Shown here: piece after piece, positions 205-63,996 of the stretch | Layout of the letters: each line of letters begins with the position of its first letter | Numbering within the stretch: the first letter of the stretch is position 1 | IMG/VR virus record: IMGVR_UViG_3300036979_001044 | Coordinates: 1 to 64,000 of that record | DNA from: a virus | Strand: one strand, 5' to 3' | Length of the DNA stretch: 64,000 nucleotides | The notes under the pieces: generated by a model | Told to the model about the DNA's origin: nothing | Seen by the model: the letters and a program-made list of their open reading frames with translations, nothing else | Databases searched by the model: none | Translations under genes and position numbers: made by a program

Positions 205-844
205 GATGCCACACCCGCAAGATCTGACGCAGAGTTATTTCTGGAATAGCTCTTCCGCGCGCTGAAAAGCGCGTAGCTATTTCCAGAAAATTGCATCGAT
301 CCGTTTGCTGGCTCCAGCGTTTGAGTACCATGGTCAGTTCCTTTCCACGGATAGGCAATCCCGCACGGGAGAGGCGACGAGTGTAGCGCTGGTAGCAGCG
401 GAGACATAAACCTTGTGCATAGTGGACGCGGCTGAGCGATCCACACCAACTGCAATTGTACAACCGATGCCGTTTTCCCCAGTAATCTCCTCGCAACCAA
501 GCGATCAACTCATCAGCCTGATCTTCGCATATCAAAAACCTACCACGAGGAGAGGTTCTCTTCCATTTCTGCGCGCACGCTCGCATCGCCCGCCGAAAAT
601 GGCTCACCCCGTAGCCGGTCTCCCGAGAAAGTCGACGCAACGTATATACCCCGCGGGTCAACCCGCCCGCCCCATAGAGCCGGCGAGCTTTGTGGTAGAC
701 CGCCTGCCGAGTGCGCCCCTTGGGAGCCCCGGGCCAATCGCATCCATCGCCGGTGTGATTCTGGAACCAAGAAACCCCGTAAATACCCACCCCATGGAGC
801 AGCGCCTGTTCCTCCTGCTTGGTCCATCGCCGCCCGCGTCCCAT
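194..844 (-). CDS. DNA-binding protein: Myb/SANT-like N-terminus, HTH and CxxC..CxxC zinc finger
   Basis: RRWTKQEEQALLHGVGIYG..W...GRTRQAVYHKARRL matches the Myb repeat pattern; YTLRRLSRETGY is HTH-like; CSWC...CLRCY. Confidence 0.65.
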   Translation of the reverse strand: MGRGRRWTKQEEQALLHGVGIYGVSWFQNHTGDGCDWPGAPKGRTRQAVYHKARRLYGAGGLTRGVYTLRRLSRETGYGVSHFRRAMRACAQKWKRTSPRGRFLICEDQADELIAWLRGDYWGKRHRLYNCSWCGSLSRVHYAQGLCLRCYQRYTRRLSRAGLPIRGKELTMVLKRWSQQTDRCNFLEIATRFSARGRAIPEITLRQILRVWHHAG

Positions 845-1564
845 CTAGCAATCCTCCTCTTTATCCGCAGGCTTTTCTTCCGCGTCCCCAGCCGTTTTCT
901 TTCGTAGCTGCTCCCTCCGATGACGCAGAATGGTATCAACCGCCACCCGAGCCTCCTCCTCGGAGAGAGACGCGGCCACCCGCACCGTGTCAGTACGCAC
1001 CCCGCCATTGGATTCGTGAACCACTTCCTTGCTAACCTGCTTTTGCAACTCAGTCTCGTAATCGAGGAGTTTCAGATAAGCGGTCACCAGCCCCTCGTAG
1101 CTACCAACCCGCACCTGCTTGTCGCGGAGCTTTCCCAGAATATCGGCTCCCAGGGACTGCAACTCTTTGAGCGCGAAAAGCTGCTCGCGCATCATCCCCT
1201 GGCCGATCTTGGACTGAATCCGCTGCGAGATTCCGTCATAAAACTTCTGCCGCTTCTCTACCCAGCGATCCTCAGTGCTCCAACGGTTCATCGTATTGTG
1301 CGAAAGATCCTTGTAGAGCGGATCTTTGGCCATCTCTACAATCGTCAACCCCTCCCGGTTGGTGACATACTGAGTCTCAGCCAGCCGCCGCAGCCAAAGG
1401 TATCCAGGGATTTCCGTACCCGGCTCAGCGAGACCAACCGAAGATACCCGTACCGTCGTCGCAACACCGAACTGATTCACCACCTCCTCTTTGAGAGCCG
1501 GCCCCTTATGCTCGGCTTGAATCAGTTTTATCTTTTTCACTTTTTTGGGGTTGGCTACACCCAT
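845..1564 (-). CDS. HTH protein, possible terminase small subunit
   Basis: QYVT..LT..EMA..S.NT..RWS..D.W.EKR followed by a helical region resembles TerS-type HTH proteins; SD GGAGG upstream. Confidence 0.4.
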   Translation of the reverse strand: MGVANPKKVKKIKLIQAEHKGPALKEEVVNQFGVATTVRVSSVGLAEPGTEIPGYLWLRRLAETQYVTNREGLTIVEMAKDPLYKDLSHNTMNRWSTEDRWVEKRQKFYDGISQRIQSKIGQGMMREQLFALKELQSLGADILGKLRDKQVRVGSYEGLVTAYLKLLDYETELQKQVSKEVVHESNGGVRTDTVRVAASLSEEEARVAVDTILRHRREQLRKKTAGDAEEKPADKEEDC

Positions 1565-1832
1565 AACGTACCTCCAGGAGCCCGCGCAAACGCTCGATCA
1601 ATTCCACCTGCACCCCGCGCCAAACATCGCGCATCAACTGCTCAGTGTACACCTGCTCCAACGCGCCAGCGATCTCTCCCGCCAGCTTGAAGGTCGGAAC
1701 CACCCTCCCATCCTGAATCTCCAGTCGCGCCTCGATCTGCGCTAGACCGATTCCAGATTCTTTGGAAATGCGGAGTCGAGCCAGTTCTATCCCCTCCAGC
1801 AACACTCGTTCCACGTTGAGCAAAAAAATCAT
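1506..1832 (-). CDS. hypothetical protein
   Basis: ATGA-coupled to the RuvC stop. Confidence 0.6.
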   Translation of the reverse strand: MIFLLNVERVLLEGIELARLRISKESGIGLAQIEARLEIQDGRVVPTFKLAGEIAGALEQVYTEQLMRDVWRGVQVELIERLRGLLEVRYGCSQPQKSEKDKTDSSRA

Positions 1833-14254: not shown

Positions 14255-14327
14255 AACTGATTCCTTTCTGGATTTTTCTGGAGCACATACGAATTGGAAT
14301 AGCCCAAACCGTTCCAGAAATCCAGAC

Positions 14328-14849
14328 TTATTTCCCCCGCAAAATATCTCTCGCTCGATCACGAGCAGAGTAGATCATCGCCCGATATGTCACCAACGCT
14401 TTCCGACGAGGATCTCGCAAGCGAATTGCCTGAGCAGCAGCAGTAACAGACCCTTCCTCGACGATAGACATAAGCAAATCGAAGTCCTGAGCGCTCAACC
14501 GCTCCCGCAAAAGGCACAAATCCGATCGAGCCTCTAGCTGCCCGATAGGATCGAAATGAACAGGGTGCTTAGCTGTCTCCACCAGTAGCAGCCACTTAGA
14601 CCAGCGTCGAATGACCGTCTCGTAGACGAAATTGCTTTCCAGCCAGATCGATTTGTAAATCCAGCGTTCAAAATCCCGTTCCCCAATTTCTGGACAGCGT
14701 AGCGCCGAGATACAGCCGATCGAATACAACCGTGCGTAGAACTCGTTGTCCACGGGCTGTCCTCGTTCACCGACCCATCTATGCAAGCGTTTTGATCCCC
14801 ATGTAGCCCACTTCTCAATAATCTGTAGCCTCTCTGGTTGCACTTCCAC
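14328..14849 (-). CDS. divergent ECF-type sigma factor-like protein
   Basis: Region-2-like F.RWIY..I and region-4-like L.ERLS..D..LL...EG.S..AA...I..AR...R.IL; 173 aa. Confidence 0.5.
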   Translation of the reverse strand: MEVQPERLQIIEKWATWGSKRLHRWVGERGQPVDNEFYARLYSIGCISALRCPEIGERDFERWIYKSIWLESNFVYETVIRRWSKWLLLVETAKHPVHFDPIGQLEARSDLCLLRERLSAQDFDLLMSIVEEGSVTAAAQAIRLRDPRRKALVTYRAMIYSARDRARDILRGK

Positions 14850-18435: not shown

Positions 18436-19455
18436 CTACAACGTCCCCAATCGGGACACCTGCCCGATGGGCTGTGCCGTCCGCCTGAAGGCCTCCAGCT
18501 CGTTCCGGCTGTACTCCCCTGGGTCTCCCTGGGGAAGCCGCACCACCCGCACGTCAAAGAGCCCAGCGAGCTTGGGAGCAGCCTGGACCATCTCTGGCCA
18601 AGCCCCCATCGGCTCGTTCTCGCTCGGCCCATCCCACATCAGATCCACCGCCCGCACCCCGGCCTGGCGGAGCTTGAGCATCTGCACCAGCGTGATCTTC
18701 TTCCCGAAGGTCGCCACCGCCGAGGGCCCGCTATGAATACAATCTATCGGGCCCTCGACAATGGCCACCCGCGGAAAATTCCGCGCTACATCCAGATTCA
18801 TCAGCACCTCCCCGGATGTTGCCATCCCCGCCGTCGCCGGAGGATTGAGCGCTTTCTGGAACCGTTCTCCGGGAGCTGGTTCCCACATCGCCCTAGCCTG
18901 GTAGTACACCATGCGACTGCCCTCGTACACGGGAAACAAAACCCGATTGGCGTAGCGCCCACTGGAACACCAGAAAAGACCGAACGCCCGCACATCTTCT
19001 TCCATTATACCGCGTTTCTGAAGATACGGCAATATGCCGCATATTGGCGTAGCCCCTGGGGGCGGGGGAATAATCGGTAGTACCGGAAGATCAAAAGATT
19101 GCGGTAACTGATCCAGCGGAGCATCACTGCGCATCCATGCCGCCTCGCCAAGCAGCCCCGCCTGGGAGCGCACCAGCTCCGCCGCTTGCTCGCGGCCGAT
19201 TCCTTCCAGCATGGAGATGAGCCCCAGAAGTCCCCCAGCCCCGCGCACTGCCCGGCGTTGCCCGGTGGTGTAGTCGATGGCGAACTCCTCGCAGACCCAA
19301 CAATGCCAAGTGCGCCGCTGGGTGTTCACGGTCAGTTTGTTCTTCCCGCAATTGGGGCACCGGATCAACCACTCATCAGCCTGCAATCGACGAGCTGAAA
19401 ATCTTTCGAGGTATGCCGCCAGATCAAATCTGTCGATCGCTTCCCATTGGGTCAT
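18436..19455 (-). CDS. DNA primase (Zn finger + TOPRIM)
   Basis: CPNC...HCWVC, YL.KRG, R..FP, YQAR, IVEGPID, D.G. Confidence 0.88.
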   Translation of the reverse strand: MTQWEAIDRFDLAAYLERFSARRLQADEWLIRCPNCGKNKLTVNTQRRTWHCWVCEEFAIDYTTGQRRAVRGAGGLLGLISMLEGIGREQAAELVRSQAGLLGEAAWMRSDAPLDQLPQSFDLPVLPIIPPPPGATPICGILPYLQKRGIMEEDVRAFGLFWCSSGRYANRVLFPVYEGSRMVYYQARAMWEPAPGERFQKALNPPATAGMATSGEVLMNLDVARNFPRVAIVEGPIDCIHSGPSAVATFGKKITLVQMLKLRQAGVRAVDLMWDGPSENEPMGAWPEMVQAAPKLAGLFDVRVVRLPQGDPGEYSRNELEAFRRTAQPIGQVSRLGTL

Positions 19456-20912
19456 ATCGGTGCCCTCAGCTGGCTTGGGTTGGGGGGTTTGACGTATCCA
19501 AGCGGCACCACCGGGGCCACTCCAGCCACCGCGCCGATCGGAAGATTTCCAGAAAAAGATCCAGCCGAGGCAATGGTCATCCGCTGAAAGTCGGCGTAGA
19601 CCAGGATCACCTGCCCGGCGGCGTTGTCTCGGTACAACTCAGCGAAAAGCCGCGCCTGCTTGCACTGCCGTTCTTCCTGAGTCTGGTTGATGGTTCCCAG
19701 GAAGTCGGCCACGCGGACCTTGTCGTAGCAGTCGGCTATTTTCCGGCTCTGCAACACCTCGGTGCTGGTCTCCAGATCCTCCTTGGGCCGTTGCGCCTGG
19801 GAAGCCGTCCAGAGCGCGTACCCACGGTTGGACAAGGTCTTCAGGTCGCGAAAAGCCGACCGCTGCACCTCTACCTCGGTGTGCAAGTGCTCCTCCCGAG
19901 CCCGCAACAAATCACCGTAGTCGACAATCAGGGCGTCGGGGTCCCAGTTGAAGCGCTGTTTCAGTTCCCGCATCTCCTCCTGAATATCAGCGACCGAATA
20001 GGTCCACCGTTCAGTGAGACCTCGGATGATGAGCTTCTGGCGGTATGCCTGGTATTCGTACTGAAGCCGTTGCCAGGAGTCAGTGGTCAAGGAACCATCT
20101 TTGATCCGGCTATACTCCTCCTGCGCGAAAATCGAGTCGTAGCGGTTCTCGACCATCCGCCGAGAACCCTCCAGCACGAAATGGAGAACCTTGAAGTCCC
20201 CGCGACGGACCGCCTGAGCCCCATGATTAACCAGGAGGGTACTCTTGCCTCGTTTCGGATAGGCAATCCACACCCCCATCTCGCCTTTGCGTAATCCACC
20301 AGCCAGAATATGGTCCAGTTCAGGGATTCCAGTTGGGACCGCATCCGTAAGTGATCCATCTCCCATCCGATGCGCCATGCGCTGAGGAAGCTCCTCGAAG
20401 AAAAAGCTGCGGTCGACCGTATCCCATTGGCTATGAAAGATCTGATCCATGGCCTGGTACATCGACTTGTAACTCTGATCGACGTTGCCCGCGTTGAAAA
20501 ATGCCTTTGACTCGTGGAATGCGGCCACGAACAAGTGCCGCTTGATGAAATCGATGACCGTATCTCGAAGCCACTTCTCCGCCGATAGATCAGCCTCCAT
20601 CACCCGCTCCAGAGTGAGCCGAAAGAATTCCCTGGCCCGAACGTCAAGGGATCGGGTGTATTCACAGACCAACCGCAACGAAGGCATGCTCTCATAGCGC
20701 TGGCGGTACTCCTGCATCCGCGCGAATGCCCAACCGTAAACCTCATTTTCAAAATAGCCCGGTTGCAAATGCGGCATCACCGCGCTGGCAAAAGAGACAT
20801 CCTGCGCCAGAAGCTTGAGCAGGCTCGCCTGGTAGTCGACTCCGAAAGGAAAGCGATCCCCCGCTGAAGGAACCCCCGCCGAAGCGGGCACCGGGGTTCG
20901 CTCAATTGGCAT
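19452..20912 (-). CDS. DnaB-like replicative helicase
   Basis: PTGI.ELD..L.GGL..GE, GKST, LE, IVDYGDLL, WTASQ. Confidence 0.9.
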   Translation of the reverse strand: MPIERTPVPASAGVPSAGDRFPFGVDYQASLLKLLAQDVSFASAVMPHLQPGYFENEVYGWAFARMQEYRQRYESMPSLRLVCEYTRSLDVRAREFFRLTLERVMEADLSAEKWLRDTVIDFIKRHLFVAAFHESKAFFNAGNVDQSYKSMYQAMDQIFHSQWDTVDRSFFFEELPQRMAHRMGDGSLTDAVPTGIPELDHILAGGLRKGEMGVWIAYPKRGKSTLLVNHGAQAVRRGDFKVLHFVLEGSRRMVENRYDSIFAQEEYSRIKDGSLTTDSWQRLQYEYQAYRQKLIIRGLTERWTYSVADIQEEMRELKQRFNWDPDALIVDYGDLLRAREEHLHTEVEVQRSAFRDLKTLSNRGYALWTASQAQRPKEDLETSTEVLQSRKIADCYDKVRVADFLGTINQTQEERQCKQARLFAELYRDNAAGQVILVYADFQRMTIASAGSFSGNLPIGAVAGVAPVVPLGYVKPPNPSQLRAPI

Positions 20913-25748: not shown

Positions 25749-25791
25749 TTTCCAGACAAATTCCAGACATTATCCAGAATTCCAGAAAAGT

Positions 25792-33100: not shown

Positions 33101-34004
33101 GGTAACCAATTTTGGAACGACGAACGATGACACTCACGAATTCTGGATTGACCGGATTGTCCCAGGAAAGAGTGATCTGCTTCTGGGCTGGCCCGGGAAT
33201 CGCCACGAAATTGGTCACCGGCTCAAAGGTAGCGCTTAGCTCCATCTGCGCTAGGTTCTGGAAATCTTCTAACGCGCTCGCGCCGGTAAGCACAAGCGAC
33301 TCCGCAAGTACCTCTTCGTACCGTAACGGATAACCGGTGTGGTAGAGATCGAGAACTTCAGCTGGCGTCCAGGCACGAGCGGAAATAGCGACCTCGTCCT
33401 GCCGACCATTCAACTGATCTGCTCTACCAGTCCAAGGTGTAGCCCCGTCCGCCCTTGCTCCGATCACGCAAGGATAGGCCTTTGAGTGAATTGCCCCAGC
33501 ACCGGCCACTACCTTGTTCAAGTACCCATTGAGGTAGATCCTCGCGTCGATGCCATCGTAGACGCACGCGACATGGTACCAAGTAGAAACAGCTAGCACT
33601 GAAGCCGAGAGCAAAGTGACGCCAGTGCTGTCTGACAGTCCAACCTCAAACCGGATCTTCCGTGCGCTATCTATCGCCGCTGCCCACTGTAGATCTGCCC
33701 AGGTTGAGAACGCTGTTTGTTTGGTAATGATCGAGTACAGTCCAGAAGGGGTGCCTGCCAGGTACACCCAAGTCGAGATAGAAAGTACCGTTGGGTTGAA
33801 AAGCGCATCGGTTCCCAGGTTGATATACTGGGAAGACCCGTTGGTCTGAACTCCCTGTCTCAGTAGCGCCGTGGGCCAGGTGGGTGTTCCAATAGCGGTA
33901 CCATGTAAAAGATTGGTGTGCGCGTCGTTGGCGTTGCCGTCCAACTTGTAATAAGCAATCAATCCATCGAGCAAGGTCAGATGTGTTTTGATCGAATTGC
34001 CCAT
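30138..34004 (-). CDS. large baseplate/fibre protein with N-terminal LamG and FN3/Ig-like domains
   Basis: WYHVACVYDG...YLNG LamG motif; LSW.NP FN3-like; L..IG.NFG..R...D..YR wedge-like motif. Confidence 0.75.
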   Translation of the reverse strand: MGNSIKTHLTLLDGLIAYYKLDGNANDAHTNLLHGTAIGTPTWPTALLRQGVQTNGSSQYINLGTDALFNPTVLSISTWVYLAGTPSGLYSIITKQTAFSTWADLQWAAAIDSARKIRFEVGLSDSTGVTLLSASVLAVSTWYHVACVYDGIDARIYLNGYLNKVVAGAGAIHSKAYPCVIGARADGATPWTGRADQLNGRQDEVAISARAWTPAEVLDLYHTGYPLRYEEVLAESLVLTGASALEDFQNLAQMELSATFEPVTNFVAIPGPAQKQITLSWDNPVNPEFVSVIVRRSKIGYPGSPGSGDLAYQGTDEGFLDSDLDPAELYYYSIFSYDTYHTYSVAVQTNSITQELDRAQLTACVATAKDRVRATFNQTLRLGEGDSTDVLVPANWDFDTLAHPVVAQSIALFQTSPTIIDITLDGEGTAGESYTATAAATIQAEDLRTIDPVNRAKTFIGLGEMPQLTATVAIGLFRVLVEFSEPVLGADDPDNYEIVGLVISSVHLHNETLHQYVLHTNQQTTDADYTVVASGITDLVGGPIDPDHDSLDFTGYMPTGSYAALSQSQGLIEALTGTIGEAATEMGGLISTKLTAVAAAGATTFLVETTEGWANSGKCAVEGVPYTYSGKTITTLTGIQFIRGGEVQVGTAILHHIESVVTDISRERSYLDKLRRALLLDYAAEEDLNVIGRNFGLIRHPVFTEDAVYREVIRGIAYNPKGSMLGLELALTGMAGAGNFEIYEDLIRYPCQVFVKLTGEAIIHSAQKGTGKAWMTDRYYDALRGTAETLDLSATPLFVYGVQLKALQEVFDFREEKPSDVVYPYYPGVTPAAAFTYAGALSEGASVTVEGGQTKLSAGSAGTVFYRMLDTQGARATAESDWVVAALLAIPTAASLKVGELEQASLAVFDGACRMSAGLSSTLGFGLFATSGGGFLGTTVTLARDTYYTVELKKAGSWVELSVNGQLISRVAYADFAGATTTDHQIELGIRGVPNSGMVLWLKQLRASIQTMTDYWSGRGADGSVATASPATLTIGGATHAFLAGDVGKPLRTYGSAAANAQGGNNNGRWRVATYVSATEVTLRGVENADAQTSSGTPTKITVPLVDGRGPFVYPDDLGKSIVISGSDHGKDGTYLITKLFDPDTDADYATEHISGTALARTCQVAAATFVTEIGLTWELRPNFVTESGLDFGQSGTGSFSGTVLTLREPLWKNDLIMEILAIDEHASQMLLNQNCITLANSEGPPPTYTYYPWYVVDPLGMLRRFVDQLTAAGVVPEYFIGDELYGY

Positions 34005-34005
34005 A

Positions 34006-34992
34006 TCAACCTCTCTTGCCCTTACGATGGAATCCACTACCGACCCCTGCTTCGCGGGGCCAGATAGGGTGTGGTTGATGGGTCAGTTCATTAACATCGG
34101 GGTTGGTCCTAAGCAACGACGGGAACGCCAGCACTCCAGCAGTATCATCGAGCGTTCTTGCGAGGGCAAAGGACCAACTTGTTTTGTCAATTGCATATTG
34201 ACTTGGATGCGGATTGCGGATCAACGCCCGCACCTCTGAACTTGCTCCTTGAACGGGTTGAGGTAGGTTGATGATCGATGCGCCTTGCAGGGAGTCTACA
34301 TATTGCTCCTCATAGCGGAGCGGATATCCGGTGTGGAACAGGTCGATCACTTCGGCCACTGTCCAAGCACGACCTGCAATGGCAACCTCGTCCATCCTCC
34401 CATTCAGATAGCTTGCCCTGCCAGTCCAAGGGGTAGATCCATTTGCTCGCGCACCGATAACGCAGGGATAGGTCTTCGAGTGAATGGTGCCAGCACCGGT
34501 CGCAGTGTTATTCAAATAGCCGTTTAGATATACTCTCGCATCCGTGCCGTCGTAGACACACGCGACATGATACCAGGTAGAAAGAGTCAGCGCCGAAGCA
34601 GAAAGAACCGTTACACCCGTGCTGTCTGATAGCCCCACCTCGAACCGGATCTTCCGTGCGCTATCCACCTCAGCCGTCCACTGAAGGTCTGCCCAAGTGG
34701 AGAATGCCGTGCGCTTGGTCACAAGCGAAAAGACGCCACTAGGTGTTGCCGCCAGATATACCCAAGCCGAGATAGAAATCGCCGTTGGGCTGAAGAGAGC
34801 ATCAGTTCCCAGATCGATGTACTGGGAAGATCCGTTGGCCTGAAATCCCGTCTTGAGCATGGCCGTGGGCCAGGTCGGAGTGCCTATCGCTGTTCCATTG
34901 AGGACGTTGGTGTGCGAATCGTTCGCGTTCCCATCCAGCTTGTAGTAGGCCAGCAAACCACTCAGCAAGGTCGGGTGCGTTTTGATGTCCAT
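34006..34992 (-). CDS. LamG/concanavalin A-like domain virion protein
   Basis: L.AYYKLDGNAND...WYHVACVYDG; paralogue of the next gene's N-terminus. Confidence 0.8.
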   Translation of the reverse strand: MDIKTHPTLLSGLLAYYKLDGNANDSHTNVLNGTAIGTPTWPTAMLKTGFQANGSSQYIDLGTDALFSPTAISISAWVYLAATPSGVFSLVTKRTAFSTWADLQWTAEVDSARKIRFEVGLSDSTGVTVLSASALTLSTWYHVACVYDGTDARVYLNGYLNNTATGAGTIHSKTYPCVIGARANGSTPWTGRASYLNGRMDEVAIAGRAWTVAEVIDLFHTGYPLRYEEQYVDSLQGASIINLPQPVQGASSEVRALIRNPHPSQYAIDKTSWSFALARTLDDTAGVLAFPSLLRTNPDVNELTHQPHPIWPREAGVGSGFHRKGKRG

Positions 34993-35024
34993 TGTTTCAG
35001 CGCCTTTCTAGCAACCATCCAACG

Positions 35025-36908
35025 TCAATCGGTCTCAGGCCCCATCGCCACCCATTGTCCGCTGTCGGTGCAGTAGAACAGGCGGAAGGTTTGGTAGACT
35101 CCTTGAAAGCGGACCTTGATGGTATCCTCGTTGACTGCGTTCCAGACGTTGGAAACTGAGCGGACGTGCGGGATGTAGCCAGGTCGCTTTTGATGGTCCT
35201 GCCCCATGCCTCTGTAGTCTGAGTCGCTATAGGTCTTCATGCGCCATGGAACAAGGAACAGTGCGCCCGTGGCTGCTTCTGGATGCAGGTCAACGCAGTT
35301 GAGGAAGTCAGTTTGTTTGTCGGAGACAACCCACTGGGCGTATTGAAAGTCGGCTTGCCATGGTTTGACGGACCCAAGTGGCTGGAAGCTGCTTACACCT
35401 GCGGAGCAGCGCCACTTGATGCGGTGGACCGGCATGAAGGGGGAGATGAAGACTCTGTCGTTGCGGGCTGAGTGCCACACGGTGGCGTTTCCGTACCCTA
35501 CGCCCCCAAATTGAACCGACTCCTCTCCACCAGAGGCGCCCTGTTGCGGTCCGACGTGGCATCGGATGGCCTCTCCGATTAAGGCGCCGGCCATGTAAGA
35601 GTAAGCTGTGCCGAAGTGAAGAGTCAGGACGTTGGTGACTTCGTTGACGTCTGTCACTAGCACGGGCTCGAAGATCGCCTCATCTGCGTCCAGTTGAGGC
35701 CAGGAGTTGGACCCCCCTCCACCCGGGGCGCCCTGGTAGGTGTTGCTGACTTGGTTGCGGTTATTGTGCCAATCGGTACCCGGGTTGCAGGAGAGCAGCA
35801 TGTACCGCCCACCCTTGGTGAACAGGTTGGCGTCTGCTACTTTGATCTGTGTGGCTCCAGCGGCTATGTTGCCGTCTCCCGTTGAGGTGGCGGTAGTCAT
35901 GTCTGTGCTGCCGAAGGGGGTGTAAAGGCCGACGTAGTTGACTAGGTAGTTGTTGTTGCCCATCATGCAGATGATGGCTACACCGTCTTTGGAGCCATAG
36001 AACCAGCAGTCTCTTGGCGAGGAGATCAGGTTGTAGCGCAGGCCTGGACATCTGCGGTTGGATACCCCGGCAAGGGTCTGGTGTCTGCTGGCCTGCGGGT
36101 GCATGGCGGGGGAGAGGATTTGGATGTGCTGCGCTCCAGGTGAGGTGAAGAAGGGTGTGTAGGAGGTAAGGCGTAGTTTGCCGGTTGTCTCGACTGTTTG
36201 CCCGGTAATCCAGCGCATCTTGCCGTCTGCTGTCTTCAGCAGGGAGCAGTAGTTGAGTTTGTTGTCGTCGTAGGTGGTGTTGAGGTCGCTGGAGTCCATC
36301 ACGATGTCGTCGGTGCAGGCTGTGTCTCCAAGGGACCAGAGTACGGTGCCCGTGCTTGACATGAGCGGGTTGACCAGCTCTCTCAGGCCTGAGATGGTCG
36401 TTGTGGGGTAGCTGTTGGTGATGCGGACAGCTACGTCCTTTACGTCGTGTACGGCGGCGGTGGTGCCGTACATGCCTCTAACGCATGAGGTGAGCGTTGT
36501 GCCTATGACCCCTACCTGGATCAGCTCGTCGCCTATTTGGATGATTTCTCCGTTGGCCAGGTTGGGGATGGCGGCTTTGAGCGTGATTGAGGTGTCGGTT
36601 GCCAGGATGCCGGCGGCCAGGTAGGCAAGGTCTGGGCACCACCCTTGTGGTGACTGGATGCTCATGGTGCCAAGGTGGAGGGGGATGTTCTGGTTGCCGT
36701 CCTCCCCGTTGGACTTCAGGAACCAGCCCAGTATGTGGGCGTGTTTGTCGTCTTGGGCGATTCTGAGGGAGTCATCCCCACCGGGACCGTCGCGTGTCGG
36801 ACTTGCTGGATCGTGAATCCAGCCGCAGTCGGTGACGAGAAAATCTTTCAGCTTCTTTGCGAAATCAGCTGTCGAGTTGCACAGGACATGCTTGCCCTTG
36901 AAGGCCAT
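35025..36908 (-). CDS. putative tail fibre / virion protein
   Basis: Position after the baseplate; I.IGDELI...L....RG.YGT.A..H motif; beta-rich. Confidence 0.6.
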   Translation of the reverse strand: MAFKGKHVLCNSTADFAKKLKDFLVTDCGWIHDPASPTRDGPGGDDSLRIAQDDKHAHILGWFLKSNGEDGNQNIPLHLGTMSIQSPQGWCPDLAYLAAGILATDTSITLKAAIPNLANGEIIQIGDELIQVGVIGTTLTSCVRGMYGTTAAVHDVKDVAVRITNSYPTTTISGLRELVNPLMSSTGTVLWSLGDTACTDDIVMDSSDLNTTYDDNKLNYCSLLKTADGKMRWITGQTVETTGKLRLTSYTPFFTSPGAQHIQILSPAMHPQASRHQTLAGVSNRRCPGLRYNLISSPRDCWFYGSKDGVAIICMMGNNNYLVNYVGLYTPFGSTDMTTATSTGDGNIAAGATQIKVADANLFTKGGRYMLLSCNPGTDWHNNRNQVSNTYQGAPGGGGSNSWPQLDADEAIFEPVLVTDVNEVTNVLTLHFGTAYSYMAGALIGEAIRCHVGPQQGASGGEESVQFGGVGYGNATVWHSARNDRVFISPFMPVHRIKWRCSAGVSSFQPLGSVKPWQADFQYAQWVVSDKQTDFLNCVDLHPEAATGALFLVPWRMKTYSDSDYRGMGQDHQKRPGYIPHVRSVSNVWNAVNEDTIKVRFQGVYQTFRLFYCTDSGQWVAMGPETD

Positions 36909-36911
36909 GGC

Positions 36912-37148
36912 TCACTCCTCCACGGATGCAATATGGTCGTTGATTTGGGTAATGATGTCGAAGAGAAGTTCTCCATCGACGTTCTCGACTTGAAGTGGCT
37001 TGGCCAGCATCTCCGCCGTGAGCGGAATCGAAAAAACGGTAGTTCCCTTGGAAGTCTCCAAGCTCGCATTGACGTGCGAAAGTCGCTCGGGAGGCGCAGT
37101 CGTAATTCTGGGAAGATTGAGAGTGATGGAGTGAATTTGGATTGGCAT
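36912..37148 (-). CDS. hypothetical protein
   Basis: SD AAGGA; tightly coupled to the next gene. Confidence 0.6.
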   Translation of the reverse strand: MPIQIHSITLNLPRITTAPPERLSHVNASLETSKGTTVFSIPLTAEMLAKPLQVENVDGELLFDIITQINDHIASVEE

Positions 37149-37211
37149 GCCCTGGTCCTTTCAAAAAATTTACTTTACCCAATTCAATATGGCCGACACG
37201 AATTCCCTTTC

Positions 37212-37631
37212 TCAACCAACAGATTTTTCTAGATCAACATCTCGGGCTCCGGTCAGATAATGCAACGGCAAAACTTTGCGCATCAAATAGGTCGCATCGG
37301 CGTACAGTCGTGGCCAGACATTAATCGACTCCATTAGCAGTTCCTGCTCCAGCGTCTCCAGATCGCTCACCACCAAAGAATAGGGAGTCCCAGAACCAGC
37401 CGAAGGGCGCAGATAAGGTGAATATGCTCGAATGATGCCCGCAGTAAAAGGGTAAAGGATATTTGTGCTACCCGGAATCCCGCTGTAGAGGGCTGGATCA
37501 AATGGCATCATAGTATTCCCGATCCGAGCCCGGTAGCGGTGGTTGATCACAAACGTGCCGTAGACCTCCACCAGCACCCCTCCAGCTCCGGATAGGTTTG
37601 GATGAGAGAATCCAGTCAACGTAAGTGCCAT
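37212..37631 (-). CDS. hypothetical baseplate-region protein
   Basis: SD AGGAGA; directly after baseplate J. Confidence 0.65.
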   Translation of the reverse strand: MALTLTGFSHPNLSGAGGVLVEVYGTFVINHRYRARIGNTMMPFDPALYSGIPGSTNILYPFTAGIIRAYSPYLRPSAGSGTPYSLVVSDLETLEQELLMESINVWPRLYADATYLMRKVLPLHYLTGARDVDLEKSVG

Positions 37632-37640
37632 ATCCGTCTC

Positions 37641-39053
37641 CTAGCTAATCACGATGTTTTCATCCGTAGTCCGTGCGATCTGATCGTCAAGCAGGATGAT
37701 GTCAGTGCTGGGTGTTACCAGGTTCACGTTGTAGACCCCAGCAACGCTCATCACCTTCTTGATCAACATCGCCCGCAGCACGTCCCCGGAAATGCCCAGT
37801 GTATTGATGTAGTCGCGGATAGCGGTCTTGATTGTCGCACGTACCTCCGCATTATCGTAACCGTCAAGCACGGTAATGATTGCGTTTACCGTCTGGATAA
37901 GGACCTGGGGAGTTGTCACAATCACTAGCACTCCAGCTGCCCGGTACCCTGGATAATTCACGCGATCCGCGGCAACCCCGTCAATGATCTTCTGGGCCAA
38001 CGCAATCAACCCAGTGTACCGGGTATAATTCGCCGTGATGATCTCGCCAGTGACCAATGCTGGGTAAAAGACGATCTGACCCGAAGCAGGATTCAGCCAG
38101 AAATCTACCCCTCGATCCAGCATCCCACGATTGTTGCTCTCCAAAGTGAAAGTCACCGTCCCTTTGATTGCTATGTAGTTCAGGTTCAGCCGTGTTTCAC
38201 CCCCAACCGCTGATCCGGCTGGAGGGCCAGAGAGCCCCTCGGTCACAATCTCGTCGACCACTTCCGCGGTAGACTCCGCCGCCCCAGTACCGTCGTCGAT
38301 ATAGACGGTAACGAGCCCCGGATTCACGATGTCCTCTACCGCCTTTATGAACATGATGGTTGCGCCGGTATCCAGATCGACTGCCCCGCGCACCGCCTCT
38401 TCAATGGCTTCGATGGTCGAACGCCCCAGCGAAGAAACAAATCGCTTGATCCGATTTCGGAAACTGTCGTCGGTTTCCTTATCCGATCCCCAGGAGAAGG
38501 AGCTTGGGTTGGTGACACTGTCGACTCCCGCCGGGCGGGACACAAAGCGGATGATGGTCGAAGCTACCACGTTTCCAGAAATTCCAGGAAGCACCGCCTG
38601 GGTGGCGATCTGCCCGCTATCCTTCCCGACCCCATGCCCGCTGATCTGTTCTGGACTGGTGGGGGTGATGGTTCCAGAAACTGTGGTGATGAACTCAGTT
38701 CCTACCGATGTGCGAACCTTGGTCCCAAGCGGGATGGTCACCGTTCCGACCGTCGTATTTCTGGAAAATACCAAGAGCCCAGTCGACTTTGCCGCCGCAT
38801 TTCTGGAAATGAGTCCGGGTTGGATCTCTCGCGACCGCTCGTCCAGGTCCTCCCCAGTCGCGGTGTCGATGGAGAACACCTGGCGCAGCAGGTACATCTG
38901 GTAGGAGATCTCATCGAGCTGGCGCGCAGTAGCGGCAATGATGTGCTTGACGACCGAGGTGTCGGAGATATCCGAGAGTTTGGTGCGGGTGACTATCTTT
39001 GCAATCATCTGAGCCAGAAACTGCTCATAGCGCTTGGTGGTGAAAACCGGCAT
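37641..39053 (-). CDS. baseplate J/gp47-family wedge protein
   Basis: TATGEDLD, G..GNV, V.NP....G.D.ETD..FR.R, Y.AAGV motifs. Confidence 0.9.
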   Translation of the reverse strand: MPVFTTKRYEQFLAQMIAKIVTRTKLSDISDTSVVKHIIAATARQLDEISYQMYLLRQVFSIDTATGEDLDERSREIQPGLISRNAAAKSTGLLVFSRNTTVGTVTIPLGTKVRTSVGTEFITTVSGTITPTSPEQISGHGVGKDSGQIATQAVLPGISGNVVASTIIRFVSRPAGVDSVTNPSSFSWGSDKETDDSFRNRIKRFVSSLGRSTIEAIEEAVRGAVDLDTGATIMFIKAVEDIVNPGLVTVYIDDGTGAAESTAEVVDEIVTEGLSGPPAGSAVGGETRLNLNYIAIKGTVTFTLESNNRGMLDRGVDFWLNPASGQIVFYPALVTGEIITANYTRYTGLIALAQKIIDGVAADRVNYPGYRAAGVLVIVTTPQVLIQTVNAIITVLDGYDNAEVRATIKTAIRDYINTLGISGDVLRAMLIKKVMSVAGVYNVNLVTPSTDIILLDDQIARTTDENIVIS

Positions 39054-58107: not shown

Positions 58108-58192
58108 AGGGACAAGCCGCTGGAGAAGAAAGCAGTGGCCCCAATGCTCAGAAAAATCGGGGGCCACTGCTTCCAGAAAAAGCGGAGTCCCT
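58108..58192 (-). terminator. long hairpin, probable terminator or structured RNA
   Basis: 13-bp stem AAGCAGTGGCCCC/GGGGCCACTGCTT plus outer stems; TTTCTTCT follows on the minus strand. Confidence 0.55.
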
Positions 58193-58229
58193 CCAGAAAG
58201 GGGAAATCCAGAAAAACCCCGCTACTATC

Positions 58230-59834
58230 TTAGGCGGACTTCTTGCCCAGATCCGTGATTTGAACGAACAGATCGCTCGCGCTGGCCGCGTAGCCAATGC
58301 GGATGACTCGCTTCGCTCCCGTGGGAATTGCGGTGACCAGGCCACCGCCGTCTCCCAGGTAGTAGGGGGTGTTGACCAGCGCGGTGGTGAGCACGCCGGA
58401 GCACAGCCCGGAGAAGCACACCGGACCGCTGCCGCTGGGGATAGCGATACGGGCGATACCGACCGTCCGCGCTTCCACATCCACCCCAGCGTCGGCCTTG
58501 GAGACCGTGTCGTTGGCCGAGAAGTAGACCGGATCGCCCTTGGCGATGGCCTCGCCCACGGCGTAGTCTTTCTCCAGTCTCTCGGACTCCGCCACCGCGG
58601 CAACCAACTGGTTGGAGCCGTTGATGGTGATGGTCGACCCATCGACTTTCGCCCCGAGCCCACTGGCGGTCAGCTCCAGTCCTCCGAGCGTGATCAGATT
58701 GACCTGGAACGCGCCCGACCCGTTGAACGCCAAACCGCCCGTTCCCACGCCCGCCGCGGCGAGCTTGGCCGAGACCACGCCCGCGGCGATTGCGAGACCC
58801 TTGTCGGTGTCGTAGGTAGCCTTGCCCTTGATGGTCCCACCGCCAGAGCCGCCATTCGCATCGGGGATGCTGTTCGGGCCCGTAAAAGCGGTCCAGGCCG
58901 AGGTGTCATAGACGAACCCGTAGTTTTCGTAGATGCCATTTTCACCCGCCACCAGAACAGCGTCTCCGTCGATCGGGGCGACAAACGACCAAGCGTTGGT
59001 GGTCGAGTTGTACGTCCCGAATTTGTTCTCCTGGCTGGCGAACGGGGCAGCCGCTCCGGTCCCGATGACCACCACCCGAGTCCCGTTGGGCGGCTCGGAG
59101 CCGGAGTTGGCGAGAACCACAACCCACGCCGTCCCGCTCCATTCCACGATGTCGCCGTTGGCGTAACCGGTGCCCCAGCCATTCACCAGCCAGGCTTCGC
59201 CAGCTGCGCCGGCGGTGGGCACGTCGTTGGTGCCAGCGTCGGTAGCATCGTCGATACCCAGCTCCAGCCAGTTCGCATGCGCCGACGTGATGGCAACGGT
59301 CGAACCCGTTCCTGTGGTGTTGCTCTGGATGTCGATCTGGTTGGCGGCGCCTTCTACCGCGATGGTTCCGCCGAGACCGCCACCGGTGCCGTACAGCGTG
59401 TTGATGGCCGTGATCGCTGCCGCGCGATCTACCGGGGCCGAAGCCAGGGTGATGACCACCGGGGTCTCGCCGTCGATCGCCACGGTGAAGGAGTTTCCGG
59501 TTGTCAAATTGACGATCCCAGTTCCACCCGACCCCACGACGAGCGCGCCGGTGGGCGTGCGCGCCGTACCGCTCTTCATCTTCAGGACCGAGACCGGGGA
59601 CTTCCAGCTGTAGCCAGCGATGGCTGCATCGAGCTGGGCCTTGTTGACGGCGTCGCCAGCGTCGGCGCCATTGGCCAAGCCGATGACCTTGCCGGTCCCG
59701 GAAAGCTGGATGTTGCCAGCCGACTCTGATCCGGCGCCGATCACCATGGAGGCGACCTTTACTCCATCGCTCGCTCCCTGCTCTTCGTTGTACCCGTCGG
59801 TACCGTTCAGAAATAGAAATTTCTTGATTGCCAT
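58230..59834 (-). CDS. head/neck fibre-like structural protein
   Basis: DAVNKAQLD neck motif, Gly-rich, C-terminal capsid-cement-like GEAI..GD.VY...A.A...GIA. Confidence 0.65.
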   Translation of the reverse strand: MAIKKFLFLNGTDGYNEEQGASDGVKVASMVIGAGSESAGNIQLSGTGKVIGLANGADAGDAVNKAQLDAAIAGYSWKSPVSVLKMKSGTARTPTGALVVGSGGTGIVNLTTGNSFTVAIDGETPVVITLASAPVDRAAAITAINTLYGTGGGLGGTIAVEGAANQIDIQSNTTGTGSTVAITSAHANWLELGIDDATDAGTNDVPTAGAAGEAWLVNGWGTGYANGDIVEWSGTAWVVVLANSGSEPPNGTRVVVIGTGAAAPFASQENKFGTYNSTTNAWSFVAPIDGDAVLVAGENGIYENYGFVYDTSAWTAFTGPNSIPDANGGSGGGTIKGKATYDTDKGLAIAAGVVSAKLAAAGVGTGGLAFNGSGAFQVNLITLGGLELTASGLGAKVDGSTITINGSNQLVAAVAESERLEKDYAVGEAIAKGDPVYFSANDTVSKADAGVDVEARTVGIARIAIPSGSGPVCFSGLCSGVLTTALVNTPYYLGDGGGLVTAIPTGAKRVIRIGYAASASDLFVQITDLGKKSA

Positions 59835-62093: not shown

Positions 62094-62113
62094 GCTCGCT
62101 CTCCTTCCCCGGG

Positions 62114-62728
62114 CTAGACCCGCGCCGTGGGCTGGATGATGGCGTGCAGCACCTTGGCCCCGTTGTACGTCCCAGCGCTCGCGTCGATGCCGCTGATGGA
62201 GGTACCGATGGCCACCGTCGGGGTGGCGATGCGCGTGCCTCCCAGATAGACGTGGCGCACAGCGTCCACGTCGGGCACGTCGTAGGGCACGCCGATGACG
62301 TTGCCCACGCCGACCACCAGCATGTCCACGTCGACCTCAGCGCCGCTTGCCCCACTGACCACCACCGAGTCGATCAGGGCGAAGATCTTGGTGCCGGTCA
62401 GCGTCTTGCCCGCGCCCTCGCCGTCGGGGGCCATGGTCTCGACGATCGTCCGGCCCATCATGTCCTTGCCCGTGATGGTCAGCAGACCCACCACGCTATC
62501 GTCGGCGTCGGTCAGGGTGGCGGTGATGTTGCGCGGGCAGTCGGGCTGCGCCGCAATGGTCTTGGTGCCGTTGTTGAACAGGATCGTGGTAACGATCCGA
62601 TCGGCGTCGGCAAGGACCGGCTGGCCCATGAACAACGAGACCGAGCCGGCCAGGCTCTTGTGGATGAACTCTTCTTCCTCCTCGGAGGGGATGCGGGCTT
62701 TGACCGCATCGCTGATCGTGTTCTCCAT
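62114..62728 (-). CDS. putative capsid decoration protein
   Basis: Directly after the MCP; PD.PRNIT...ITG.D..G..I.E...TG.K.F. Confidence 0.6.
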   Translation of the reverse strand: MENTISDAVKARIPSEEEEEFIHKSLAGSVSLFMGQPVLADADRIVTTILFNNGTKTIAAQPDCPRNITATLTDADDSVVGLLTITGKDMMGRTIVETMAPDGEGAGKTLTGTKIFALIDSVVVSGASGAEVDVDMLVVGVGNVIGVPYDVPDVDAVRHVYLGGTRIATPTVAIGTSISGIDASAGTYNGAKVLHAIIQPTARV

Positions 62729-62838
62729 GGCTTGCTCTCTTTCTGGAATCTGGAAAAGGCGCCGGAGAACGCGGAGGGTAGCCGGCACTACTCCGGCGTC
62801 TCTTCCAGAAATGCTGTTTGTTCAGTCAACTCAACCGC

Positions 62839-63996
62839 TTAGGCGGCTCCCACGTACCCCGTCGCCCGGCCGATGTTCCTGTAGAGAACATTCTTGCCAG
62901 GTGTGTAAAGTACGGGAGTTCCGTACAGTAGCTGCATCCAGCGGATGCTGGAGTCGACGGTCGCGAGCGGGATCTTGATCATCGGGGCTAACTGCTTGAA
63001 ACTCATCGACTCCAGGTTGAGCTGCCAGAGGAAGGCGCTCGTGCACCCGGGCAGGTTCTCGTTGAAGTCGTTGATGATGGTCTCGCCCGCGCCGGCGGCG
63101 TTGGGCACCCGGAGGATGAGTCGCTCGGTGCCGGCCGCGCCGTTCTTCGCCGTCCGATAGATCTCGTACCACCCGGTCGAAGCCGAGGAAGGGGTCAGAC
63201 CGAAAGTGACCTTGTCACCCGCCTGCACGGTCACCGCGGCGGAGAGGGTCAGCGGAGCCGAGCGGCCGAAGCGATTCACCGCGACGACCTTGTAGCGGTA
63301 GTCGCCGGCATCGTCGGAGGAGAACTTGCCCAGCGCCTCGGTCGGGGCAGTGGCGCCAATGGTGTTGCTCGGGATGCCCGGGCGCTTGGTCTGGTCGCCC
63401 AAGGCTGCGGCGTTGGGGCCACCACCGTCGGTGATGAACACGTCGGGTTCGAACAGCACATCACCGGCTGGGCTGGTGAAACCCTTGACATCGAGGCCGA
63501 TGAAGCCGCCCTGTTTCTGGAAAGTGTCGTGGCGTTCCTTGGGGAAGAACGTCTTGACCAAGTCGGCCTTGGTCTTGGGATTGAGGTAGAGGTGAGTTGG
63601 TGTTCCGTAGTTCGGCGCGTCCTGGACCGTGAGCGCGCCGTCGGTGAGCAGATCCTCGCTCAGCGGCAGACCGCGGAGGTCGATGATGTTGGTCGCCGGG
63701 CACAGATCCTTCATCAGCTTCTCCATGCCGTCGAACTGGAGGGCGGACAGGGAGCTGTCCCCGTAGAACAGCGCCCGCTCCATGATCCGGAGCAGGTGCA
63801 TGGTGCCGTTGACCGTTTCCTGGGCCACAACATTCCCATGGGCCGGTTTCACTAAGCTCATGACATGACTGACTTTTCTCGTCGTCCCGAGGTACTTCAC
63901 GATGTGGTACTTCCGGGTGTAGATCGCGTCGTCCTCTTCGGGGAGATCTCCTTCGGAAATGAAGCCAGCGTCGGGGTTCGCCCCGTACTGGCTCAT
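62839..63996 (-). CDS. major capsid protein (5' part outside window)
   Basis: YG....F..EG.LP...D..Y.R....KYLG.TR.VS, E.ALFYGD..L...FDG, L.PM.K.PLA...LLYG; SPO1/Twort-type MCP. Confidence 0.9.
   Translation of the reverse strand: MSQYGANPDAGFISEGDLPEEDDAIYTRKYHIVKYLGTTRKVSHVMSLVKPAHGNVVAQETVNGTMHLLRIMERALFYGDSSLSALQFDGMEKLMKDLCPATNIIDLRGLPLSEDLLTDGALTVQDAPNYGTPTHLYLNPKTKADLVKTFFPKERHDTFQKQGGFIGLDVKGFTSPAGDVLFEPDVFITDGGGPNAAALGDQTKRPGIPSNTIGATAPTEALGKFSSDDAGDYRYKVVAVNRFGRSAPLTLSAAVTVQAGDKVTFGLTPSSASTGWYEIYRTAKNGAAGTERLILRVPNAAGAGETIINDFNENLPGCTSAFLWQLNLESMSFKQLAPMIKIPLATVDSSIRWMQLLYGTPVLYTPGKNVLYRNIGRATGYVGAA

Follow-up and report, generated by a model that had tools for sequence, protein, structure and literature searches.

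A short asymmetric DNA word under selection at hundreds of positions in an uncultured phage genome, and a candidate phage-encoded reader

Introduction

Why would a tailed phage keep the same short word at hundreds of places in its genome, mostly inside genes, and what reads it there? Phages are known for avoiding short words such as restriction sites and PAMs; to our knowledge, accumulation of a word in phages is limited to a few cases, namely Chi in P1 and the stoperators, and we know of no described system in which a word marks or coats a genome in this way. The DNA considered here comes from an uncultured tailed phage of about 100 kb, whose incomplete record (G000) spans 96,810 bp at 58% GC; the window is the 64-kb stretch of this record that was annotated from the sequence. 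The initial annotation had noticed an iterated octamer, TTCCAGAA, and proposed that it belongs to a system of dispersed sites and a protein.

Results

The word and its abundance

A program count of exact octamers in the window agrees fully with the earlier manual one (50 copies on the plus strand and 35 on the minus strand, the last at 63515-63522), against 2.4 ± 1.55 (maximum 6) in dinucleotide shuffles of the window. The whole record holds 141 copies (75 plus, 66 minus), along with 314 copies of TCCAGA and 207 of TCCAGAA; this AT-rich word takes up about 1.5% of the ~100-kb genome. One-base deviants of the octamer cluster at its first and last positions, and the first T is soft (T in 141, C in 31, G in 21 and A in 14 sites). 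Position 9 is A in 74% of sites, and this run of A lies on a single side of the word (TTCCAGAAAA 57 copies, TTTTCCAGAA 12) rather than forming the T/A flanks on both sides that had been described. The one-sided A-run and the soft first T therefore indicate that the real word is an asymmetric 9-10-mer, with the consensus yTCCAGAAAw. The importance previously ascribed to the CA core is borne out by this consensus, as is the scarcity of palindromes: 13955 and 27016 are the only positions of TTCCGGAA, and no copy of TTCTAGAA was found.

Selection on the DNA

Coding sequence contains 126 of the 141 octamers (89%, with a coding fraction of 90%). Shuffling synonymous codons within genes gives 21.2 ± 3.0 coding copies (maximum 29) and shuffling codon order gives 4.0 ± 2.0; the excess survives both codon shuffles, and the earlier suggestion of selection at the DNA level therefore stands. 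Comparison with a complete relative, G001 (70% nucleotide identity), leads to the same conclusion, with 58% of the sites retained in place as against 9% of background 8-mers, and with 82% of four-fold synonymous positions identical inside sites (74/90) as against 41% outside (p=2e-15). Selection thus works on the DNA itself, and not at the RNA level, because the two orientations are equally frequent although one strand carries nearly all the genes. Codon choice and amino acids are visibly constrained by the word, and this constraint, together with the site-by-site conservation and the single-base changes among relatives described below, means that some reader must affect fitness measurably at hundreds of positions.

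Distribution and geometry

As had been described, the sites use all codon phases, all six phase/orientation classes being occupied, and they are non-polar: TCCAGAA occurs 106 times on the plus and 101 times on the minus strand, the cumulative orientation skew stays at or below 19 of these 207 sites, and no switch point of the kind that Chi-type polarity would give is seen along the genome. Spacing is random (Poisson, CV ~1). The density of TCCAGAA follows gene class, with 2.22 per kb in genes common to all painted relatives (that is, those enriched in the word), 1.20 in genes found in the closest relative only and 0 in orphans. Gene 58230-59834 has no sites, 27677-30157 has 0.8 per kb, and the longest octamer-free stretch (5.3 kb) covers tail-fibre-type genes (Table 1), so the least conserved genes carry the word least often. 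This residence-time pattern, in which core genes are densest and orphan and fibre genes lack the word, counts for a phage-encoded reader.

Head-to-tail pairs are in excess: G000 has 26 of them at 7-23 bp, against an expectation of about 9, and direct pairs in three genomes number 79, 73 and 50 (expected 61, 51 and 25). The four-site array in the lowest-GC intergenic region adjoins four palindromic GCACAG-AAA-CTGTGC operators, an AT-rich stretch and 37-bp direct repeats; in G001 the counterpart of this region holds seven sites, of which six share an orientation and two lie 11 bp apart. The excess of pairs and the 11-bp phasing of the array look like geometry typical of protein binding. A terminator-like hairpin directly follows the three head-to-tail sites at 58165-58215. 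The earlier proposal that the octamer is a dimer-binding site is a poor fit to an asymmetric site that is mostly single or in head-to-tail arrays.

Table 1. Positions of the word, its arrays and the associated genes (numbering of the window)
Feature	Position	Strand	Remarks
Dispersed exact TTCCAGAA sites	239..63522	both orientations	85 in window; of the 141 in the record, 89% within genes
Candidate reader, 357 aa	13181..14254	-	Cys cluster, wHTH-like, Lys/Arg-rich linker, DUF2924 (RAMA)
Operator-like cluster of four sites	14267..14340	-	At start of gene 13181-14254
DNA primase, zinc ribbon + TOPRIM type	18436..19455	-	PHROG 47, E=8e-36
DnaB-like helicase	19452..20912		Adjoins primase; Pfam DnaB_C
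Convergent pair, TTCCAGAAA, ~28 bp, TTTCTGGAA	24058..24101	.	Intergenic, upstream of AT-hook ORF 23829-23993 (-)
Head-to-tail array, four TCCAGA (11, 11, 8 bp)	25751..25788	+	Lowest-GC intergenic region 25095-25875
Longest octamer-free stretch (5.3 kb)	33264..38572		Tail-fibre-type genes
Three head-to-tail sites, spacing ~15 and ~20 bp	58165..58215	+	Between 58230-59834 and 57519-58088

Dialects among related phages

The word is found in relatives of the phage as a set of dialects, TTCCAGAAA, TCCAG[A/C]AAT, TTCCAGAGA, TCCAGA[A/C]T and the palindromic TCCGGA, each of which has TCC, next A or G, and then G, giving a TCC-R-G core. The dialects track phage lineage over a range of 45-64% GC. The palindromic dialect is confined to one relative, G002, which has 319 copies of TCCGGA (50 expected); there, 12 copies of TCCAGA are retained and 7 of TCCGGA stand at orthologous positions. 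Relatives carry direct terminal repeats, that is, fixed ends of the T5 type. Enrichment in related phages, raised in the initial annotation as a point to check, holds for these painted genomes and fails for two AT-rich relatives, G011 and G012, in which no painting was found in spite of their DUF2924 domain.

A candidate reader and its operator

Five possible readers in the window had been named, and the DUF2924 protein encoded at 13181-14254 is the one that we retain, as it has a four-site operator at the start of its own gene. The other four gained no support: the supposed Myb-like product of 194-844 is HNH-like by PHROGs, those of 845-1564 (HTH) and 18161-18415 (RHH) gave no family match, and 23829-23993 on the minus strand is a real AT-hook ORF of 54 aa, conserved only in the closest relative. 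Read in the orientation of the gene, the cluster at 14267-14340 has two TCTGGA at a distance of 8 bp and, beyond some 30 bp of spacer, two TCCAGA 11-12 bp apart. The last of these directly adjoins the ribosome-binding site, AAGGA, and the start codon (ATG, 14254); a terminator-like hairpin lies immediately upstream of the cluster. The four sites are invariant in five phages in which the spacer has diverged (protein identity 52-80% to the 13181-14254 product), the orthologous gene start in G003 has an inverted site pair, and the gene-start cluster is among the densest of the genome in both G000 and G001.

From its N terminus, the protein comprises a Cys cluster, a three-helix domain that resembles a winged helix (residues ~28-83), a long disordered linker rich in lysine and arginine and a C-terminal DUF2924. 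The last matches Pfam PF11149 over residues 277-351 with 43.4 bits, above the curated cut-off of 31.2, and E=5e-11 (E=6e-12 with the C-terminal part alone), and the protein has 746 metagenome relatives at 50% clustering. The modelled N-terminal domain matches wHTH domains with Z of 5-6, where chance fold matches are common near Z ~6. DUF2924 is in part the RAMA DNA-binding domain (PMC11342252), RAMA domains go with adenine methylases and restriction enzymes (PMC4738411), and the RAMA domain of human MPND binds dsDNA without sequence preference (PMC9963953), so specificity would fall to the winged-helix-like domain, which is itself weakly supported. Sequence and model thus point to the 13181-14254 protein as the best candidate reader, and the position of the four sites suggests that it may regulate its own gene through them.

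Several observations count against a DUF2924 reader. G011 and G012 retain the domain at 51-53% identity, yet are unpainted; two more distant contigs that bear orthologues, L051 and L052, have weak to moderate painting without the operator; the region upstream of the gene in G002 gives no clear picture; and the octamer recurs, about once per kb, in L257, an AT-rich viral contig that is not related to the phage, where the 20 kb examined contained no match to DUF2924.

Discussion

The word is genuine, selected at the DNA level, kept in place, variable among relatives and arrayed at gene 13181-14254. The explanation that we favour, while holding it at somewhat less than an even chance, is that it is the recognition site of a sequence-specific dsDNA-binding protein encoded by the phage lineage itself. 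We infer that a protein binds the word, which protein this is and what the coating would be for. Such a protein would read an asymmetric site of about 9 bp, the TCC-R-G core and its A-rich flank, as a single unit, with adjacent units placed head-to-tail at about one helical turn or in inverted pairs. A few clustered sites would serve as operators, and some 300 dispersed ones, placed in genes where the protein sequence tolerates them, would load the same protein along the whole chromosome. Phage DNA would thereby be marked or coated as 'self', which could serve to protect it, compact it or recruit phage machinery to it. The 13181-14254 product would be the most probable reader; in it, the winged-helix-like domain could give specificity, the histone-H1-like lysine-rich linker would fit the A-tract and the RAMA domain would provide general dsDNA binding; it may shut off its own gene by way of the four conserved sites over the ribosome-binding site.

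The stoperators of Cluster A mycobacteriophages, read by the L5 repressor gp71, are similar in that a single phage-encoded protein reads an asymmetric site, in that many genome-wide copies accompany true operators at regulated genes, here those at the start of the putative reader's gene, and in that sites differ among related phages. However, stoperators number about 24-35 per genome and lie mostly in short intergenic gaps in one direction relative to transcription, whereas the phage studied here has about 140-310 copies, in both orientations and mainly in coding sequence, and no lysogeny module was found among its annotated genes. A more specific version, which we regard as speculative and rather doubtful, is that the phage encodes a 'chromatin' or self-tag of its own that is sequence-specific: the wHTH-RAMA protein, acting like a histone, would co-evolve with its private word in dialects, and the ~300 genic copies would distinguish own DNA from that of the host or competing phages for protection, selective replication or packaging.

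An alternative that we consider unlikely is that the sites tell a replication enzyme, reading one strand at a time, where to start; the simplest such enzyme would be the phage primase at 18436-19455. From a template 5'-TTTTCTGGAA-3', a 'cryptic' GGA and, after it, a primer pppAGAAAA would arise; occurring about once per 0.9-1.4 kb on each strand, the sites would determine where Okazaki fragments begin. The proposal suits the dispersed, strand-equal sites at Okazaki-scale density, the presence of both a primase and a DnaB-like helicase, and the head-to-tail array beside an AT-rich, repeat-rich, origin-like region. It also suits the asymmetry of the word and the TCC-purine-G of every dialect, as expected of a cryptic part and a purine-initiated primer; the primase words of T7 gp4 (GTC-based pentamers) and of the NrS-1 prim-pol (for which 8 nt is reported) are likewise asymmetric, are used on both strands and have a constant part before a purine start. 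However, T7 gp4, T4 gp61 and DnaG recognize words of 3-5 nt, and if the phage enzyme, which is of the same zinc-ribbon/TOPRIM type, does so too, chance would give enough sites. The primase is present in all painted relatives but also in unpainted G011 and G012, at 43-44% identity, as close as in painted G002. Nor would priming sites be expected to form inverted four-site operators over a ribosome-binding site, and the word is spaced without regularity and shows no orientation switch along the genome.

That a host factor reads the word, the phage copying a 'self' signal of its host and the dialects reflecting different hosts, seems to us improbable to the same degree. Candidates would be a Chi-like signal that stops a helicase-nuclease, an uptake-type tag or the site of a nucleoid protein. 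Many sites, each conserved, suggest a small benefit per site, as with Chi or uptake sequences; two orientations would be useful against a nuclease entering from either of the fixed ends implied by the relatives' terminal repeats; and the octamer is enriched in the unrelated L257. Chi is also an over-represented 8-mer with a small benefit per copy, and phage P1 is known to be enriched in it, but Chi is polar, strand-skewed, G-rich and defined by host RecBCD/AddAB, whereas the phage word is strand-balanced, AT-rich, about 3x denser than Chi in P1 and found in operator-like arrays. Chi words also differ completely between bacterial families, while the TCC-R-G core is constant over phages that span the full GC range and probably infect different hosts, and the phage encodes its own RecA, SbcCD and RuvC. 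DUS of Neisseria and USS of Pasteurellaceae also resemble the word, being non-polar 9-12-mers that occur inside genes about once per kb, and here in every frame, with lineage dialects; they are, however, traits of bacterial chromosomes read by the competence machinery, and the present dialects follow phage phylogeny. In 401 genomes sampled over the phylum of G009 (Pseudomonadota), TTCCAGAAA reached at most 0.045 per kb, compared with 1.08 in the phage; five genomes flagged by a pattern scan had at most 0.22 octamers per kb; and a scan of one genome per species over 185,579 species gave, among the matches listed, only scattered single hits in unrelated taxa. Thus no bacterial genome painted with the phage word was found among those searched, a sample that may not include the phage's host.

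Less likely still is a HIP1-like by-product or target of methylation, in which a phage or host methyltransferase marks TCCAGA/TCCGGA, methylation-linked short-patch repair creates and maintains the sites, and the RAMA protein might read the mark, in keeping with the ties of RAMA domains mentioned above. TCCGGA is a 6-bp restriction-type palindrome, and the phage word, at about 1 per 0.3-0.7 kb and in all frames within genes, is similar in density and placement to HIP1 and other iterated palindromes of cyanobacteria; the outer-position deviants of the phage word match the pattern that Elhai is said to have described for HIP1. HIP words are reportedly (Elhai, in 2015) palindromes of cellular chromosomes that co-occur with cognate methyltransferases, whereas the main phage word is asymmetric and viral. 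Pfam gave no methyltransferase domain for the sizeable ORFs of the incomplete G000 record or for the extra ~12 kb of G001, and many of the ORFs scanned have no family. Variants expected from deamination repair are not depleted: in G002, TTCGGA and TCTGGA stand at 0.92 and 1.61 of expectation, in G000 only the CTAG-containing TCTAGA is low, and ratios are 0.6-1.6 in general, save for words containing CTAG or TAC. With no candidate enzyme found among the phage ORFs scanned and no signature of repair drive, the modification site suggested initially gains no support. Less probable again is a site-specific nickase of the T5 or Pseudomonas phage tf type acting on both strands: an asymmetric site, the T5-like fixed ends of the relatives and the HNH-like ORF 194-844 (PHROG 20467, E=7.5e-4) would suit it, but that match is weak, known nicked phages have just 3-14 nicks on one strand, and a genome nicked on both strands at hundreds of sites, with some opposite-strand sites just 7-40 bp from each other, would be fragmented.

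If the wHTH-RAMA protein is indeed the reader, it would supply a first function for the widespread, uncharacterised DUF2924/RAMA family of bacteria and phages, an example of sequence-specific viral genome coating, and matched protein and site dialects for studying the evolution of DNA recognition. Were the reader instead the primase or a host nuclease, the word would be a handle, obtained from sequence only, on replication starts or on the Chi-like signal of the host. The word can also serve in practice to bin fragments that belong to the lineage.

A selected, asymmetric DNA word

The octamer TTCCAGAA occurs 141 times in the whole 96,810-bp record (G000). The window holds 85 exact copies (50 on the plus and 35 on the minus strand), as the initial annotation had counted, where dinucleotide shuffles yield 2.4 ± 1.55. 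The enrichment that it proposed also survives codon-based controls: the genes contain 126 copies, compared with 21.2 ± 3.0 when synonymous codons are shuffled within each gene and 4.0 ± 2.0 when codon order is shuffled. Each of the six classes of orientation and codon phase is represented, again as first noted, and 89% of the sites lie in genes, which equals the coding share of the record. The symmetric site pictured in that annotation did not hold up. Its remark that perfect palindromes are scarce was accurate (TTCCGGAA occurs at two positions only, and TTCTAGAA is absent), and the site is asymmetric: the core TCCAGA (n = 314) is nearly invariant, is preceded by T in about 60% of cases, and carries a run of A on one side only (TTCCAGAAA 105 and TTCCAGAAAA 57, but TTTTCCAGAA 12).

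The sites are balanced between the strands (TCCAGAA, 106 plus and 101 minus), with no replication-linked switch of orientation seen along the genome. Their spacing is Poisson (CV 1.02 vs. a simulated 0.99 ± 0.07), and regular spacing is ruled out by CVs of 0.9–1.02. Head-to-tail pairs within 120 bp are nevertheless in excess in three genomes (79, 73 and 50 vs. 61, 51 and 25 expected), most strongly at 7–23 bp, where G000 has 26 pairs and about 9 are expected; such arrays are of the kind used by DNA-binding proteins. At 24.06 kb and 74.8 kb, intergenic DNA carries convergent pairs whose two sites are about 28 bp apart.

The DNA itself is under selection, site by site. G001, the closest complete relative, is 109 kb long and 70.5% identical in nucleotide sequence where the two genomes align; of 104 aligned octamers it keeps 60 intact in the same place, compared with 9% of background 8-mers. 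When the codons of 64 orthologous proteins are aligned, the third base at four-fold degenerate sites whose amino acid is conserved matches in 74 of 90 cases in the word and in 3061 of 7468 outside it (82% vs. 41%, p = 2e-15), which together with the shuffles rules out an artefact of coding or composition. A signal at the RNA level is excluded as well, since the two orientations are equally frequent while nearly all genes share one strand. Density in G000 falls with gene conservation, from 2.22/kb in genes common to all relatives enriched in the word (‘painted’) to 1.20/kb in genes shared with G001 only, 0–0.8 in fibre-type genes and 0 in orphan genes, a gradient to be expected from a lineage-specific pressure that acts over residence time.

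Dialects among related phages

Relatives were gathered through their sheath, portal and candidate-reader proteins, and the forms of the word that they carry track phage lineage. The TTCCAGAAA dialect characterizes the closest group, in which G001 has 148 copies of TCCAGAAA. The genome G003 uses TCCAG[A/C]AAT, the contigs L013 and L024 use TCCAGA[A/C]T, and G015 and L339 use TTCCAGAGA; a form CCAGTCA may characterize G014. The dialect of G002 is the palindrome TCCGGA (319 vs. 50 expected, at 64% GC); TCCAGA is still 1.6-fold enriched there, and of the G002 positions that are orthologous to sites in G000, 12 have TCCAGA and 7 TCCGGA. The word is real, strongly selected and lineage-specific, with single-base dialects. 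No painting was seen in two complete relatives of 32–33% GC whose portal is about 55% identical (G011 and G012), and the genes present in all painted and absent from unpainted relatives encode membrane, structural or giant virion proteins only, with no evident DNA-binding gene among them. A literature search returned no description of this word in a phage.

Beyond this lineage, only two further loci in a viral pattern scan passed a 3-fold test, neither with DUF2924 in the DNA examined. One apparently unrelated viral contig of 32% GC (L257, IMGVR_UViG_3300031998_000825) carries 13 copies of TTCCAGAA (about one per kb) and 47 of TCCAGA on both strands of 12.5 kb, where 13.9 of the latter are expected, and 20.5 kb of it contained no DUF2924 match. 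G002 (IMGVR_UViG_3300037308_000217) has other deviating words, with CTCGAC at 252 vs. 79 expected and TACGGA/TCCGTA at 3 vs. 21, which may reflect a second word or avoidance; CTCGAG is enriched also in the loci L027/L029, L188 and L190.

A candidate reader and a putative operator at its gene

The best explanation that we can offer, tentatively and at somewhat under an even chance, is that the word is a genome-wide docking site for a phage-encoded DNA-binding protein, probably one with a winged-helix-like (wHTH) and a RAMA domain. Judging from the operator at its gene, this protein would bind the word: just upstream of the ATG at 14254 lie two reverse sites, about 30 bp, and two forward sites, the last adjoining the ribosome-binding site. 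In five phages that encode a downstream protein 52–80% identical to this one, none of the four sites varies, while the spacer has diverged freely; G003 keeps an inverted pair. Since a terminator-like hairpin lies ahead of the cluster, a promoter of the gene's own is probable at this point; a scan of the operator region for sigma-70-type promoters found none, a consensus that may not be that of the host. However, the operator is missing in two more distant contigs that carry an orthologue, the upstream region in G002 is ambiguous, and the unpainted relatives keep the DUF2924 domain.

Conserved cysteines cluster at the N-terminus of the product, which also has a three-helix domain, a long disordered linker that is rich in lysine, arginine and alanine and resembles histone H1 tails, and, at the C-terminus, a DUF2924 domain. 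In the structural model (pLDDT 72–80) the three-helix domain superposes on winged-helix DNA-binding domains with Z 5–6 and an rmsd of 1.5–2.8 Å over about 52 residues, values that chance matches often reach. DUF2924 corresponds in part to the RAMA domain of Iyer and colleagues (PMC11342252), which has been linked to adenine methylases and restriction enzymes (PMC4738411); the RAMA domain of human MPND binds double-stranded DNA whatever its sequence and whether or not it carries 6mA (PMC9963953). The family has 746 representatives in metagenomes at E ≤ 0.001, many of which share the full-length architecture, and a search of more contigs with a narrower alignment gave no confirmed locus. An HMM of the C-terminal domain found one copy per genome only, and no second RAMA domain in the giant protein. 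A PDB sequence search returned nothing for the primase or the candidate reader, and Foldseek nothing at E ≤ 0.001.

In G011 and G012 the DUF2924 domain occupies a 133-codon frame and an upstream proline-rich, Cys-containing part lies in a different frame, an arrangement that either a split gene or a frameshift conserved between the two could explain.

Other possible readers

The phage primase may instead read the word, on a template 5'-TTTTCTGGAA-3', which would fit both its asymmetry and the TCC followed by a purine that every dialect shares. Primases of this zinc-ribbon/TOPRIM type are, however, known for words of 3–5 nt, the unpainted relatives have the same primase, the sites are spaced at random, and priming sites would not be expected to form an inverted operator over a ribosome-binding site. 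A HIP1-like, methylation-linked drive may also make such a word. The one-base variants that it should consume are not depleted, Pfam found no methyltransferase among about 60 ORFs, a set that covers the giant virion proteins and the G001 DNA that this contig lacks, and NCBIfam gave no match for ten small ORFs; the palindromic dialect and the RAMA association would agree with it.

A reader of host origin (Chi-like, uptake-like or a nucleoid protein) may be considered too, but 401 genomes across one phylum have at most 0.045 TTCCAGAAA/kb, compared with 1.08/kb in the phage (the sample includes one unpublished genome, G401, on which alone we make no claim). A scan of one genome for each of 185,579 species gave scattered single hits among the matches listed, its top stretches among those matches lie in a tandem-repeat protein gene (L093) or in ordinary genomes, and five genomes flagged by pattern scan were likewise ordinary. 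Moreover, the core is constant across phages of 45–64% GC, which favours a reader passed down with the phage. Nicking at the word may be proposed as well, but on such a scale it would fragment the genome.

Features of the phage record

The window, which is the first two thirds of the record (58.5% GC), encodes a contractile-tail phage. The record includes genes for a tail sheath, tube initiator, baseplate-type proteins and portal, a family A DNA polymerase with an intein, a DnaB-like helicase, the zinc-ribbon/TOPRIM primase, SbcCD, RecA-like and RuvC proteins, a CobS/CobT-like pair and several giant virion proteins. All but one of the 73 gene calls are on the minus strand, and the exception appears to be an antisense artefact. 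The contig ends divide the large terminase in two, and about 12 kb of G001 is absent (ADP-ribosylglycohydrolase, deoxynucleoside kinase, a PHP-domain protein and others), so the record is incomplete, with no circular closure. The genomes of relatives measure 103–110 kb, two with direct terminal repeats. Cultured phages gave no nucleotide match, distant protein matches only, and none for the RAMA domain.

Positions of features in the window, the whole record (G000) and two unpainted relatives
Sequence	Position	Strand	Feature
Window; G000	1-204; 96331-96786		large terminase, two parts
Window	10626-11414		intein region in DNA polymerase gene; Pfam DNA_pol_A match in two stretches; overlapped by ORF 10679-11266
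Window	13181-14254	-	candidate reader (wHTH-RAMA), 357 aa
Window	13955; 27016		TTCCGGAA
Window	23829-23993	-	54-aa ORF, canonical AT-hook (RGRPPKG), acidic tail
Window	25095-25875		lowest-GC intergenic region
Window	25160-25290		two copies of ~37-bp direct repeat with GATC
Window	25680-25750		four tandem palindromes GCACAG-AAA-CTGTGC
G000	66684-74741		2685-aa protein
G000	75436-79764 (L180:15436-19764)	-	1442-aa virion-type protein
G000	81598-87390 (L181:1598-7390)	-	1930-aa protein
G011	~65888-66290		DUF2924 domain
G012	~99288-99686		DUF2924 domain

In the lowest-GC intergenic region, four TCCAGA follow one another at 11, 11 and 8 bp, and beside this array are an AT-rich stretch, the 37-bp repeats and four palindromic operators of a different type; in G001 the homologous region has two sites, 11 bp from each other. 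The palindromes beside the array look like operators of a second regulator, and in the other register they read CTGT-N8-ACAG, a LexA-box-like pattern; the homologous G001 region has isolated TGCACA-N5-TGTGCA palindromes. The GATC repeats, like the five to six GATC-containing repeats of the G001 region, resemble iterons, which makes the region a possible origin. The AT-hook ORF has a convergent pair of the word upstream of it, and its G001 counterpart is basic and acidic-tailed (38% identity, E = 1e-5).

The 1442-aa protein combines an intein (Hint/Intein_splicing) with an inorganic pyrophosphatase and the head domain of a poly(A) polymerase/CCA-adding-type nucleotidyltransferase, and the 1930-aa protein has an SNF2-type helicase split by an intein-type homing-endonuclease domain. 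Its 2685-aa neighbour, which falls in no Pfam family, has tblastn matches in painted relatives only.
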